64,000 nucleotides of DNA, taken from sequence record NC_054935.2; one strand, written 5' to 3'. The translations under genes and the position numbers were made by a program. Numbering within the stretch: the first letter of the stretch is position 1; every line of letters begins with the position of its first letter. Below, one piece after another: positions 4,168 to 10,560 of the stretch. The notes under the pieces were generated by a model that did no database searches, had not been told where the DNA came from, and worked only from the letters and a program-made list of their open reading frames with translations. Source of the DNA: Escherichia phage YUEEL01.

Positions 4168-4197
4168 GTTTACTTTACGGTAGAGTTGTGATATTAT
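4168..4197 (+). promoter_or_regulatory. T4-type early promoter
   Basis: GTTTAC 4168-4173, TATTAT 4192-4197 with upstream TG; precedes ORF 4228. Confidence 0.55.
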
Positions 4198-7232: not shown

Positions 7233-7292
7233 TTTATTGGAGATTCATTGCCTTAGTGTGAGCTAAATCGAGGAGCCGTCGAACTGTCTGAT

Positions 7293-7320
7293 TAATGATT
7301 TGCGAATCATTATAGTTTTA
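7293..7320 (+). terminator. intrinsic terminator downstream of rIII
   Basis: Perfect 8-bp inverted repeat TAATGATT / AATCATTA with TGCG loop followed by TAGTTTTA. Confidence 0.5.
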
Positions 7321-7476
7321 AGACCCCGGCAGTTTTACGGTGTACCTCTTGAATGTGAATGATGACGGGTTTATGGTTATCCTGGTCGTTAAATATCCAA
7401 AAACCTATGTTCCCCTTGAGGGCTTGCGCAGGCAATGCCAATAAGTCCTGCATTTTCATTTAAAAGAGAATTTATA

Positions 7477-7653
7477 ATGGCAAAACAAGCTAAAGCAAAG
7501 AAAGCAGTTGAAAAGAAAGTTGGTGATTCTAAACGCGCTGGCTACAAGCGTGGGTCGAACTCTCGTATCAATCAAACTGTTGAGAAGATCATGCGCCGAG
7601 CACGTGCGGTTCTTCGAGATGATGCTTCTCGTTTTGGTAAGCAGAAAGCATAA
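7477..7653 (+). CDS. small highly basic protein (58 aa)
   Basis: Track ORF 7435..7653; ATG at 7477 gives MAKQAKAKKAVEKK..., Lys/Arg-rich; strong terminator directly downstream. Confidence 0.55.
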   Translation: MAKQAKAKKAVEKKVGDSKRAGYKRGSNSRINQTVEKIMRRARAVLRDDASRFGKQKA

Positions 7654-7658
7654 GTTGA

Positions 7659-7685
7659 GGACTCCTTCGGGAGTCCTTTTTTATT
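7659..7685 (+). terminator. intrinsic terminator
   Basis: GGACTCC-TTCG-GGAGTCC hairpin followed by TTTTTTATTTT, 6 nt after stop of ORF 7477..7653. Confidence 0.8.
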
Positions 7686-7706
7686 TTCCAAAGATTGCAT
7701 AAAGTT

Positions 7707-7739
7707 GTTTACAGTATGGTTCCTTTGTGATAGTATTAT
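7707..7739 (+). promoter_or_regulatory. T4-type early promoter
   Basis: GTTTAC 7707-7712, TAGTATTAT 7731-7739; precedes ORF 7764. Confidence 0.55.
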
Positions 7740-7763
7740 CTTACACAAACAAAGGAGAATAAA

Positions 7764-8096
7764 ATGAAAACGATTAATCTGAACGCTGCAGTTAAAACTA
7801 AATGCTTCAATGGTAAATATGATGAAACTATGTGGTTCTTAATGGCAGTTGAAGGTGATATTATTGAAGTAGAAACAACAGAAGGTATGGGAACAGATTT
7901 CACCTTTACAATTCAAGTTCATAATTTCTTTACTGGTTGGATTTATGAATTGAATACAGTAATCGTTGGAAAAATTGAACAAAATGAATTAGGTGAATGG
8001 TATTATGTTACAGCTCGCCAACGTGCCGAACGCTTAATTGAGAAGATGAAAAAAGTTGGTAAACTTGACATGCAGCATTGGAAAGTAGTAAAATAA
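7764..8096 (+). CDS. hypothetical protein (110 aa)
   Basis: ATG ORF with AAGGAG SD and its own early promoter. Confidence 0.6.
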   Translation: MKTINLNAAVKTKCFNGKYDETMWFLMAVEGDIIEVETTEGMGTDFTFTIQVHNFFTGWIYELNTVIVGKIEQNELGEWYYVTARQRAERLIEKMKKVGKLDMQHWKVVK

Positions 8097-8098
8097 TT

Positions 8099-8127
8099 GT
8101 TTACTTTGGTACAGGATATGATATTAT
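8099..8127 (+). promoter_or_regulatory. T4-type early promoter
   Basis: GTTTAC 8099-8104, 17-bp spacer, TATTAT 8122-8127; precedes ORF 8165. Confidence 0.55.
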
Positions 8128-8164
8128 ATACCTGTACCGCAATTAAACATCTTGGAGAATAAAA

Positions 8165-8530
8165 ATGAACTACATCAACTTTGAACGTAAATATGTTTCT
8201 AATGGTATTGCAGGTTCTATTGATACTATTTGCCTTTGGAAACATCAAAATGGATCAGTATGCGAAATTGAGCAGTATATGACTCCTAATTACGTTTATA
8301 TGCGATTTGAAAACGGTATCACGGTTTCAATCACGATGGAAGGTTCCAACTTTAAAATCGCTCTGGATGATGATTTCCGTGAACGCGATTTAGGGACTCA
8401 TCCTTGCTGGAATGGCGTTAATCGCAAGCTTTTGGTTAAAACTTGGATTCGTCATATTCTGAGTAACAGAGCTAAACCTGAGCATCTTGAAGCAATCTTT
8501 GATGTAGTTCTTAACGAATTTGATATTTAA
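8165..8530 (+). CDS. hypothetical protein (121 aa)
   Basis: ATG ORF with GGAG SD and its own early promoter. Confidence 0.6.
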   Translation: MNYINFERKYVSNGIAGSIDTICLWKHQNGSVCEIEQYMTPNYVYMRFENGITVSITMEGSNFKIALDDDFRERDLGTHPCWNGVNRKLLVKTWIRHILSNRAKPEHLEAIFDVVLNEFDI

Positions 8531-8538
8531 AATAAATG

Positions 8539-8554
8539 AGGGGCTTTGGCCCCT
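8539..8554 (+). promoter_or_regulatory. GC-stem hairpin between ORFs (attenuator/processing structure?)
   Basis: AGGGGC-TTTG-GCCCCT; no following U-tract; lies just upstream of SD of ORF 8571. Confidence 0.4.
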
Positions 8555-8570
8555 TACTGAGGAAAATGTT

Positions 8571-8858
8571 ATGTTTATGACTACTTATTTTGATACCCGT
8601 AAAAACTTCTGCGAAGTAGTTTTCTCAAAGGCGCCTAAAGACCTTCCTGCACATTTGCAACCTACTAGCGAATCGATTAAAAACTACGTTGATGTGGTTT
8701 GTCCTTTAGAGTTTCGTACTGTAAATGGGCGCGATACTTTAGCTATCACTAAACTCAATCGTGAAATTGACATTGACCCTTCAATTGCACGTGAAATTAA
8801 TAGTTCTGATATTAATGGCGGTAATGTTAAATCGCACGGTTTTCAGATGAGGTTTTAA
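8571..8858 (+). CDS. hypothetical protein (95 aa)
   Basis: Track ORF begins at TTG 8520; ATG at 8571 with GAGGA SD preferred; hairpin lies between previous stop and this start. Confidence 0.5.
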   Translation: MFMTTYFDTRKNFCEVVFSKAPKDLPAHLQPTSESIKNYVDVVCPLEFRTVNGRDTLAITKLNREIDIDPSIAREINSSDINGGNVKSHGFQMRF

Positions 8859-9055
8859 TGAAATTCTTTTTAGGTCAAACTGTTGAATTAAAGGGAGTTG
8901 GTATACCTGGATTAATTTCTAAGGTTCTACCTTCGTTTAAATGGAGTGGTATTCAAATAAAAGAGGCTTATATTGTTTCTTGGGTAGATGGAAATGAAGA
9001 CCTTCGTATGGGCGATGAATTATCTCCTATCTACGGATTAAAGGAATTAGTATGA
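8858..9055 (+). CDS. hypothetical protein (65 aa)
   Basis: ATG ORF, overlapping stop/start with neighbours. Confidence 0.5.
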   Translation: MKFFLGQTVELKGVGIPGLISKVLPSFKWSGIQIKEAYIVSWVDGNEDLRMGDELSPIYGLKELV

Positions 9056-9258
9056 ATATAATTAATAAGATTTTTGGAATTCAGTACATTAAGGTCACAT
9101 ATAAAGTAACAGATAAAAATCCGTATACTGATGAACACGAAGAACCGCAAGTTAAGTCTATTATATTAGAAAAAGGCAGTGACTGGCCAGTTGAATTTCG
9201 TCTACCAAACTGTGGTCATTGGGCTGATGTTGAAATTATAAGCATTGAAAATGTCTGA
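9052..9258 (+). CDS. hypothetical protein (68 aa)
   Basis: ATG ORF, 4-bp overlap with upstream gene. Confidence 0.5.
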   Translation: MNIINKIFGIQYIKVTYKVTDKNPYTDEHEEPQVKSIILEKGSDWPVEFRLPNCGHWADVEIISIENV

Positions 9259-9709
9259 GTTAGAGATTAGAAGCAATTTTAGGTGGCCATCATGCGCATT
9301 AAGTAATTTCGCCCAATGGCCTTTCGTTATGGATGGCATTCAATTTGGAGGTCTTGAAGGATTCCTCCAAGGGTGCAAGGTGAAAAATGTTGAACAACAA
9401 CGTCGTATATTTGGGTTATCCGGGCTTGCCGCCCAACAAGCTGGAAGGTCTTATGCTAGAGCTCAGGACCGTGGGACCCTCTTCTGGCTTGGAGTTCCGT
9501 TTTCAAGATACTCCCCAGCCTGGAAAGAATTATACACAAATGCGTATTTTGAAGCAGCGCTTCAAAACAGAGGCTTTCGCGATGCATTACAAGCCTCGAA
9601 AGGAAAAGTTTTGAAGCACAGCATGGCTAGTGGTCTAACAAAAGATGATACAATACTAACCGAAGCTGAATTTATTGATGTGTTAAACCTATTAAGAGAC
9701 TCTCTATGA
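9251..9709 (+). CDS. NADAR / YbiA-like (DUF1768) domain protein
   Basis: Motif ALSNFAQWPFVMDGIQF resembles the FSNFxxWP...DG core of E. coli YbiA/NADAR; ATG at 9251 (track starts TTG 9245); locally GC-rich; corresponds by position to T4 30.3. Confidence 0.7.
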   Translation: MSELEIRSNFRWPSCALSNFAQWPFVMDGIQFGGLEGFLQGCKVKNVEQQRRIFGLSGLAAQQAGRSYARAQDRGTLFWLGVPFSRYSPAWKELYTNAYFEAALQNRGFRDALQASKGKVLKHSMASGLTKDDTILTEAEFIDVLNLLRDSL

Positions 9710-10560
9710 AGCCTACTATTTTAACTGATATTGATGGAGTATGTTTAAGCTGGCAATCAGGCCTTCCTTATTTTGCTCAGAAATATAATCTTCCGTTAGA
9801 ACATATTTTAAAAATGATCCAGGATGAGAAATTTATTTCTCCTGGTAAACTATTTAATTGCGATGAAGAACTTGGCGTTAAGCTAATTGAAAAATACAAT
9901 CGTTCGGATTTTATTCGATACTTGTCTCCATATAAAGATGCCCTATGTGTAATTAACAAATTAAAAGAAGATTATAATTTTGTAGCTGTTACAGCATTGG
10001 GTGATTCTATTGACGCTCTGCTGAATCGTCAATTTAATTTGAATGCTCTTTTTCCTGGTGCCTTCTCAGAAGTACTGATGTGTGGTCATGATTCTTCAAA
10101 AGAAGAGTTGTTCAAAAAGGCAAAAGAAAAATATAACGTAATTTGTTATATTGACGATCTCGCTCACCACTGCGATCACGCAAGTGAAATATTAAATGTT
10201 CCTGTTTATTGGATGGCTCGAGGGGAACGTGACAGTATTCCAAAAACTGCACAGCGAGTTTATACATGGAATGATGTAGAGAATAAGCTTTTTCCATCGA
10301 AGGAAAATAAAGAAAGTTTTGATAGTGAAAAAGTTATAAAAGATGTAATTGAGAAGATGATTAAAAACGATTCTTTTCGTTGGAACACTACTTGGAGAAC
10401 TCCTGGATTTAATCCTTATAATCCATATCATCCATATTATACACACTCGCATCAGATGCATCCATTCCATACGTGGAGTTATATTAAGCCTGGCGACGCA
10501 GGGTATTTTAATAGACTTACTAGTGGTAGTGGTGATAATATTTTCCAAGGAGCATTCTAA
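9706..10560 (+). CDS. HAD-superfamily phosphatase-like protein with His/Tyr/Pro-rich C-terminal tail
   Basis: N-terminal ILTDIDGV = HAD motif I (DxDxV); 284 aa; C-terminal PGFNPYNPYHPYYTHSHQMHPFH segment. Confidence 0.65.
   Translation: MKPTILTDIDGVCLSWQSGLPYFAQKYNLPLEHILKMIQDEKFISPGKLFNCDEELGVKLIEKYNRSDFIRYLSPYKDALCVINKLKEDYNFVAVTALGDSIDALLNRQFNLNALFPGAFSEVLMCGHDSSKEELFKKAKEKYNVICYIDDLAHHCDHASEILNVPVYWMARGERDSIPKTAQRVYTWNDVENKLFPSKENKESFDSEKVIKDVIEKMIKNDSFRWNTTWRTPGFNPYNPYHPYYTHSHQMHPFHTWSYIKPGDAGYFNRLTSGSGDNIFQGAF

Follow-up and report, generated by a model that had tools for sequence, protein, structure and literature searches.

Small early proteins that lack homologues and that act by binding a single host enzyme have been described in the T-even phages, examples being T4 55.2, an ORFan that inhibits topoisomerase I of E. 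coli, and T2 gp6 and gp57, which bind CoaA and GlpK. T4 also encodes AdfN, the product of gene 30.3, a NADAR-type enzyme that reverses the ADP-ribosylation of DNA by DarT1. In phages RB49 and phi1 and in other T4-like phages, promoter-stem-loop (PeSL) cassettes have been proposed to attenuate read-through and to shuffle small genes within hyperplastic regions (Arbiol 2010; Comeau 2014). Here we compare with these systems a cluster of five small early genes, 30.8, 30.7, 30.6, 30.5 and 30.4, which lies between rIII and the DNA ligase gene of Escherichia phage YUEEL01. The analysis covered a stretch of 64,000 nucleotides (nt) from sequence record NC_054935.2, and this whole stretch is called the window below. 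As a genomic feature the cluster is already known, annotations of the 30.x genes having stood in the record of the T4 genome for a long time. The explanation that we favor, and to which we give slightly better than an even chance, is that the genes encode five independent early host-interaction proteins, each of which binds one host protein and brings a benefit that depends on the host strain.

The likeness to 55.2, gp6 and gp57 does not extend to any sequence relationship with the five proteins, and a partner is known among the five for 30.5 only. AdfN is, like the five, dispensable without a matching defence system, but it is an enzyme whose domain can be recognised (PF08010), whereas the five open reading frames (ORFs) are without any. 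With the PeSL cassettes the locus shares its layout, the position of such elements beside small genes of unknown function in a hyperplastic region, and gains and losses of genes at their boundaries. It differs from them in its promoters, which are of the T4 type (GTTTAC with a TG-extended -10 box) rather than the sigma-70 consensus, in its stems, which are not polyG/polyC, and in that 30.6, 30.5 and 30.4 have no cassette. The promoters and hairpins of the T4 30.8-30.4 region are near-identical to those of the window, and the tetraloop before 30.6 reads UUCA in T4 and UUUG in the window.

Identity, conservation and expression of the five genes

Over the interval 7233-9300 the sequence matches that of Escherichia phage 107 with 100% identity, and hundreds of Tequatrovirus genomes agree with it at 98% or more; the window is assigned to Tequatrovirus. 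A sequence-only reading of the window had pointed out five consecutive ORFs of 65-121 amino acids (aa), with starts at 7764, 8165, 8571, 8858 and 9052, and these are indeed where it had placed them, on the plus strand. They are T4 genes 30.8, 30.7, 30.6, 30.5 and 30.4 (NP_049822 to NP_049818), with the same order and the same lengths as in T4 (Table 1), and comparison with the T4 reference record shows them bounded by rIII and 30.9 upstream and by 30.3-30.2-30.1-30 (DNA ligase) downstream. A Shine-Dalgarno (SD) sequence lies 6-8 nt upstream of each. The start of 30.6 is an ATG and not the TTG at 8520 of the mechanical ORF list; all of its homologues begin MFMTTYF. The most diverged from T4 is 30.4, in which 7 of the 68 residues differ, while 64 of the 65 residues of 30.5 are the same, the sole change, P27S, falling in a column that is variable among homologues.

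The same reading had called the ORFs orphans, which is wrong in the strict sense, as they belong to two Pfam and five PHROG families and have homologues in 717-1039 phage records. PF06019 (Phage_30_8) covers residues 1-110 of 30.8 (E 2.4e-59, 199 bits against a gathering cut-off of 25) and PF06919 (Phage_T4_Gp30_7) matches 30.7 over its full length (E 2.2e-52, 176 bits against a cut-off of 27); all five fall in PHROG families of unknown function, among them 2153 for 30.6 (E 4e-51), 1690 for 30.5 (3e-33) and 2042 for 30.4 (1e-32). The five proteins are small, soluble and mildly acidic, with isoelectric points (pI) of 4.95-6.7, and the idea that they are paralogues was rejected, the HHalign probability being at most 2.6% for every pair. 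The cluster is shown by these comparisons to be the orthologue of T4 30.8-30.4, that is, five unrelated single-domain cytoplasmic early proteins encoded in the hyperplastic region between rIII and ligase. Database names for the five are otherwise 'hypothetical protein' or 'gp30.x'. Errors are evident in some public annotations: 'Putative baseplate hub subunit' has been put on gp30.7, 'Head vertex protein' on one record of the 7233-9300 interval, and '1,4-alpha-glucan branching enzyme GH-13' over the non-coding rIII-30.9 spacer, and in the phage 107 record 30.9 has a length of 72 aa and 30.3 one of 109 aa.

Searches of Pfam, PHROGs, NCBIfam and PADLOC matched the five proteins to self-named families of unknown function only, and neither the single sequences nor profiles of all five found anything below E 0.04 in the PDB. 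No enzyme or structural-protein signature was seen in any of the five, and no homologue of known function was found for 30.8, 30.7, 30.6 or 30.4. A HMMER search with gp30.6 against 1.84 billion representatives returned T4-like relatives only; two long repeat proteins among its results were discarded as spurious matches. The AlphaFold2 model of gp30.8, built from an 86-sequence alignment (predicted local distance difference test, pLDDT, 95.8; predicted template modelling score, pTM, 0.84), has long beta-hairpins packed on a C-terminal helix, and its only match in BFVD was its own family. For gp30.7 the model, built from 11 sequences, is of low confidence (pLDDT 71.8), with seven strands and two helices, and gave no credible structural match.

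In a T4 transcriptome and proteome that were resolved in time, all five genes are classed as 'early-RNA_early-Protein' (Wolfram-Schauerte et al. 2022), which bears out their description as genes for small early proteins. Neither homology to housekeeping proteins nor lack of expression, the two findings that had been named in advance as speaking against the sequence-only reading, was encountered. Ratios of nonsynonymous to synonymous substitution (dN/dS) were calculated by the Nei-Gojobori method against diverged relatives recovered with rIII as an anchor (Table 1), and all five are real genes under purifying selection. The fastest to evolve is 30.4, which has 40-50% identity where rIII has 87-92%, and its homologues are almost all in Escherichia and Shigella phages; homologues of 30.8 and 30.6 extend to phages of Aeromonas, and the position of 30.8 after rIII-30.9 is kept in Jiaodavirus, Winklervirus and Gaprivervirus. 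Across the rIII-anchored loci L015-L024, gp30.7 holds 90-93% identity where ligase has 61-74% and gp30.4 has 40-46%, and synonymous sites are diverged (proportion of synonymous differences, pS, ~0.5). Such constraint on gp30.7 is unusually strong for an 'accessory' gene.

Table 1. Positions of the genes and putative control elements of the rIII-ligase interval in the window, with protein identity to T4, dN/dS and number of phage records with a homologue (tblastn)
Feature	Position	Strand	Length (aa)	Identity to T4	dN/dS	Phage records	Remarks
Gene 30.9	7477-7653	+	58	100%			PHROG 1427, function unknown
Intrinsic-terminator-like hairpin	7657-7688	+					C(UUCG)G hairpin and U-run; terminator scan; fold -15.9 kcal/mol, z -3.2
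Putative early promoter of 30.8	7707-7736	+					GTTTAC, then TG-a-TAGTAT (extended -10)
Gene 30.8	7764-8096	+	110	99.1%	0.08-0.09 (like-for-like allele)	1039	SD GGAG 7754-7757
Putative early promoter of 30.7	8099-8127	+					GTTTAC-17-TATTAT with TG, inside stem-loop (element 8099-8138)
Gene 30.7	8165-8530	+	121	97.5%	0.04-0.08	992	SD GGAG 8154-8157
Tetraloop hairpin between 30.7 and 30.6	8537-8556	+					Core GGGGC-UUUG-GCCCC 8540-8553; fold -14.1 kcal/mol
Gene 30.6	8571-8858	+	95 (from ATG)	96.8%	0.03-0.14	829	SD GAGG 8559-8562
Gene 30.5	8858-9055	+	65	98.5%	0.14-0.22	873	Start overlaps 30.6 stop (TAATG)
Gene 30.4	9052-9258	+	68	89.7%	0.21-0.34	717	Acidic, pI 4.95; ATGA overlap with 30.5
Gene 30.3 (context)	9251-9709	+		98%			AdfN, NADAR-type enzyme; Pfam PF08010

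Candidate host partners of the five proteins

The best-documented member of the cluster is 30.5, for which a preprint (bioRxiv 10.1101/2024.12.17.629029) was the only match to literature searches by gene name, protein and UniProt accession. Co-expression of T4 30.5 with the NLR-related sensor bNACHT11 led to activation, 30.5 and the host polyphosphate kinase (Ppk) co-purified reciprocally, and deletion of 30.5 gave partial evasion of bNACHT11, T4 escaping when two other activators were deleted as well (bioRxiv 10.1101/2024.12.17.629029). Apart from P27S, the 30.5 protein of the window is the one used in these assays; the Ppk binding and bNACHT11 activation are known for T4 30.5. What is documented for 30.5 is a binder and an immune trigger, not an inhibitor.

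Under the explanation that we favor, each of the five proteins would act stoichiometrically in the first minutes of infection, binding a particular host protein and retuning or disarming it. The sole demonstrated case is 30.5, which in T4 binds Ppk (binding only) and is recognised in turn by bNACHT11; 30.8, 30.7, 30.6 and 30.4 are proposed to be binders of host factors like 30.5. A benefit that depends on the host strain would explain how the genes can combine conservation and purifying selection with dispensability on E. coli K-12 and a patchy distribution among T4-like phages. The five are dispensable on this laboratory host: in a CRISPRi-ART knock-down study of T4, genes 30.4, 30.5, 30.7 and 30.8 were scored 'Not Fit' and 30.6 'Semi-Fit' (score 0.72, p 0.067).

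Immediately downstream, and on what appears to be the same message, lies adfN, an anti-defence neighbour that we count in favor of the host-interaction explanation; the HIDEN-SEQ transposon study confirms that 30.3, as AdfN, is conditionally essential in T4 against DarTG1. The same neighbourhood also lends itself to a possible but rather doubtful alternative, that the five are dedicated anti-defence proteins, each inhibiting an immune system that is missing from laboratory strains. Consistent with it are the transcript apparently shared with a proven anti-DarTG1 gene that 30.4 even overlaps, the early expression, dispensability on K-12 and patchiness of the genes, the dimorphism of 30.8 and fast evolution of 30.4, and the physical contact of 30.5 with an immune sensor. 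In that contact, however, 30.5 is a trigger of bNACHT11 and not an inhibitor, and the partner of 30.5 is a metabolic kinase; every one of the five has a dN/dS far under 1, with very low values in 30.7, 30.6 and 30.8; and no similarity to characterised anti-defence or defence-system proteins was found in Pfam, PHROGs, NCBIfam, PADLOC or the PDB, or with the gp30.8 and gp30.7 folds, no dedicated anti-defence library being among the sources searched. The sequence-only reading had described small early proteins of this kind as typical host-takeover or anti-defence factors, and each ORF as a candidate inhibitor. This is supported in part, in that 30.5 binds Ppk and is sensed by bNACHT11 and adfN adjoins the cluster; no inhibitory activity has been shown for any of the five, and the narrower claim, of a defence system inhibited by each protein, is possible but has no support.

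Several points weigh against the view of the five as host-interaction proteins. The pairing of 30.5 with Ppk rests on a preprint and is one of binding, not inhibition, and neither a partner nor a phenotype has direct evidence behind it for 30.8, 30.7, 30.6 or 30.4. The knock-downs had no fitness effect, save the marginal one for 30.6, and the main text of the HIDEN-SEQ study, which used defence-expressing and clinical hosts, names none of 30.4-30.8 as conditionally essential. When 45 early proteins of Mosigvirus AV110 were screened for toxicity, six inhibited growth, none of them with a gene number that would suit the 30.x region, which suggests that the homologues are probably not toxic alone, their membership among the 45 proteins tested being unconfirmed. 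The predicted structure of gp30.7 is of low confidence, and 30.7, which is better conserved than ligase in phages of the Mosigvirus and Dhakavirus types, would suit a core-like role more than that of an arms-race gene.

The value of the comparison lies in the short list that it yields, of four conserved, expressed, early T-even proteins that are still without a function, next to a fifth, 30.5, that touches both host metabolism (Ppk) and immunity (bNACHT11). Partners, if they can be assigned, would help to chart the takeover of E. coli by T4 and to show what the sensors of bacteria look for. The locus also offers a clean T-even example of promoter-stem-loop cassettes that mark the points of accessory-gene loss.

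Promoters, stem-loops and gene turnover

The pattern GTTTAC-N-TAnnAT with a TG-extended -10 box occurs at three sites in the window, all on the plus strand, where 1.5 would be expected for a looser pattern. One of these, at 4168, falls roughly at the early promoter Pe133295 of the T4 record, between cd.2 and cd.3 (placed by position, not mapped); the other two precede 30.8 and 30.7. Both of the latter have the -35 and -10 boxes, the spacing of ~17 nt and the location in an intergenic gap before an early gene that characterise T4 early promoters, and from their sequence and the T4 expression classes we infer that they act as such. Early promoters of the form GTTTAC/TATTAT, each with an SD sequence, had been assigned earlier to the first two ORFs; the promoters and SD sequences are present, but the correctly spaced -10 box of the 30.8 promoter is TAGTAT, the distance from the -35 box to TATTAT being as much as 21 nt. 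This -10 box is bracketed by an inverted repeat (TTTGTG/CACAAA), and the 110 nt upstream of 30.8 have two base differences from T4.

At the 30.7 promoter it is a stem-loop that encloses the -10 box, with arms GGTACAGG (8108-8115) and CCTGTACC (8131-8138). RNA that reads through from upstream (8094-8164) is predicted to fold at -20.1 kcal/mol (z -5.1), whereas the leader of RNA begun after the -10 box is unstructured in fold prediction. All of the PeSL elements are found at the 30.8/30.7 junction, namely stop codon, AT-rich tract, early promoter, stem-loop, SD and ATG, and it may be regarded as a PeSL-like promoter/attenuator cassette. At the 30.9/30.8 junction the order is terminator hairpin, then promoter; the hairpin closes the 30.9 unit just 5' of the 30.8 promoter and is kept in relatives. 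Distant T4-like phages repeat the layout, with stems of quite different sequence, upstream of 30.7 and of 30.8, and such varied stems within a constant layout point to selection on the architecture of the cassette. In the proposed mechanism, a separate T4-type early promoter would serve each of 30.8 and 30.7, the stem-loop found with it would damp read-through from upstream, and the repeats of the cassettes are thought to allow the gain and loss of genes by recombination.

The gap from 30.7 to 30.6 holds no promoter but only the tetraloop hairpin, which ends a few nt 5' of the 30.6 SD and has no U-run on the plus strand. It is kept in 17 relatives, with loops UUCG, UUCA, GAAA and UUUG and one compensatory change of G-C to A-U, and is probably an mRNA-stabilising or processing element. 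On the minus strand the hairpin (8539-8554) is followed by a T-run and scores as an intrinsic terminator, so that it might stop antisense (late-direction) transcription. Strict MotA-box middle-promoter and late-promoter patterns had no match inside the cluster, and Rfam and tRNA scans found no RNA gene. Beyond this point each gene in the order 30.6, 30.5, 30.4, 30.3, 30.2, 30.1, ligase is linked to the next by an overlap of stop codon and start codon (TAATG, ATGA, and so on), the last 8 nt of 30.4 overlapping the start of 30.3, and no promoter-like or terminator-like site stands out inside the run. Because of these overlaps and the lack of an internal promoter or terminator, 30.6-30.5-30.4 would be the head of one message with adfN and ligase, and 30.6 to ligase appears to be a single translationally coupled early message, on which the three proteins would be made together with those of 30.3/adfN, 30.2, 30.1 and ligase.

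An early message held in common with DNA ligase might be taken to mean that the five are auxiliary factors of DNA or nucleotide metabolism that aid ligase, the phosphatase-like protein of 30.2 and dCMP deaminase, and both the conservation of 30.7, which equals or exceeds that of ligase, and the marginal fitness score of 30.6 would agree with this. We consider it very improbable nonetheless. The proteins have no homology to replication or nucleotide-metabolism families and knock-down was without effect for four of the five; and ligase and 30.2 are retained without the cluster genes in many T4-like phages (L033, L035 and L039-L045), which contradicts a housekeeping role.

Gain, loss and replacement were followed in a presence/absence matrix of 40 rIII-anchored T4-like loci, and many combinations of present, missing and replaced genes are seen among the five. 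Together with the synteny of T4 30.8-30.4, this upholds the earlier view of the interval as the accessory 30.x region of the T-even phages. All five genes are found in genomes of the Tequatrovirus, Mosigvirus, Dhakavirus and Gaprivervirus types; more distant phages keep 30.8, 30.7 and 30.5 and are missing 30.4, 30.3 and usually 30.6; and several genomes have none of the five, yet keep 30.3, 30.2 and ligase. LZ9 and L013 are without exactly 30.8 and 30.7, the 30.8 promoter and leader being fused straight onto the hairpin before 30.6. A 204-aa ORF replaces 30.6 in L014 (4513-5127) and in Mosigvirus AV110 (L049, 1351-1965) and comes with its own GTTTAC early promoter, downstream, and an extra ORF of ~100 aa stands between 30.6 and 30.5 in L016 (6892-7200) and L019. 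Tequatrovirus has two alleles of 30.8 that are 37-41% identical, a T4 type of 110 aa and an LZ1/VR7 type of 122 aa (L004, 982-1350; L008, 2495-2863), the longer being the common type in distant T4-like phages. The cluster is an accessory region, and the loss of 30.8 and 30.7 falls at cassette boundaries. In some Mosigvirus- and Dhakavirus-type genomes (L015-L019, L024) 30.8 and 30.7 have leaders that form near-identical direct repeats, the substrate that the PeSL model needs. Public protein clusters P0011, P0023 and P0024 are chimeric ORFs in which the N-terminal part of gp30.7 or gp30.8 is joined to gp30.3 (or an SH3_3 domain), a hint that other natural deletions or recombinants exist in the interval.

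This turnover raises the question of whether the ORFs are passengers that persist through the shuffling of cassettes between co-infecting phages, without benefit to the phage. The architecture of the cassettes, the clean loss of 30.8 and 30.7 at their boundaries, the published model of PeSL-mediated ORFan shuffling and the lack of a knock-down phenotype are all as such an idea would have it. It is unlikely all the same: strong purifying selection and conservation, in 700-1000 genomes of several genera with the gene order kept, contradict neutral passengers, and moreover the proteins accumulate early in infection and 30.6-30.4 have no cassette of their own.

Gene 30.9 and the rIII-30.9 spacer

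A sixth small gene, 30.9, sits between rIII and the cluster as a self-contained unit, between a structured spacer and a strong terminator. Its product is extremely basic (pI 11.4, net charge +13.5). The gap that separates it from rIII (7233-7476, 244 nt) is unannotated in T4 and holds a non-coding element that is more conserved than any neighbouring gene: block 7268-7356 has 97-99% identity (83% in L024) and block 7359-7460 has 88-97%, against only 58-90% nucleotide identity for the flanking genes in the genomes compared, and an insert of 0, ~45 or ~190 nt lies exactly between the two blocks. Single-base indels and broken ORFs exclude a coding function; the one candidate, a minus-strand ORF at 7310-7459, was rejected as a gene, being broken by stops and frameshifts in relatives. 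The element occurs in 768 phage records and had no match in Rfam.

The plus strand of the spacer folds better than shuffled sequences (z -2.9, against -1.4 for the other strand), and many of its G-U pairs work on the plus strand only. Compensatory changes are found at 6 of the 46 predicted pairs, where 1.4 are expected from shuffles and 0-1 were seen in slid controls. A U-rich tract comes after the last helix, immediately ahead of the 30.9 SD, and the element may be a structured leader or attenuator for gp30.9; that gp30.9 is an RNA-binding protein acting on its own leader would be pure speculation.

On the other side of the cluster, gp30.2 (9706-10560) has 284 aa in the window and 278 in T4, with 92% identity and a rearranged, repeat-like C-terminal tail (PYNPYHPY...). 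In L047 and L048 (4792-5120) the spacer element stands directly upstream of an rIII match confined to the C-terminal half, an arrangement that implies either a rearrangement or a different gene with an rIII-like end.

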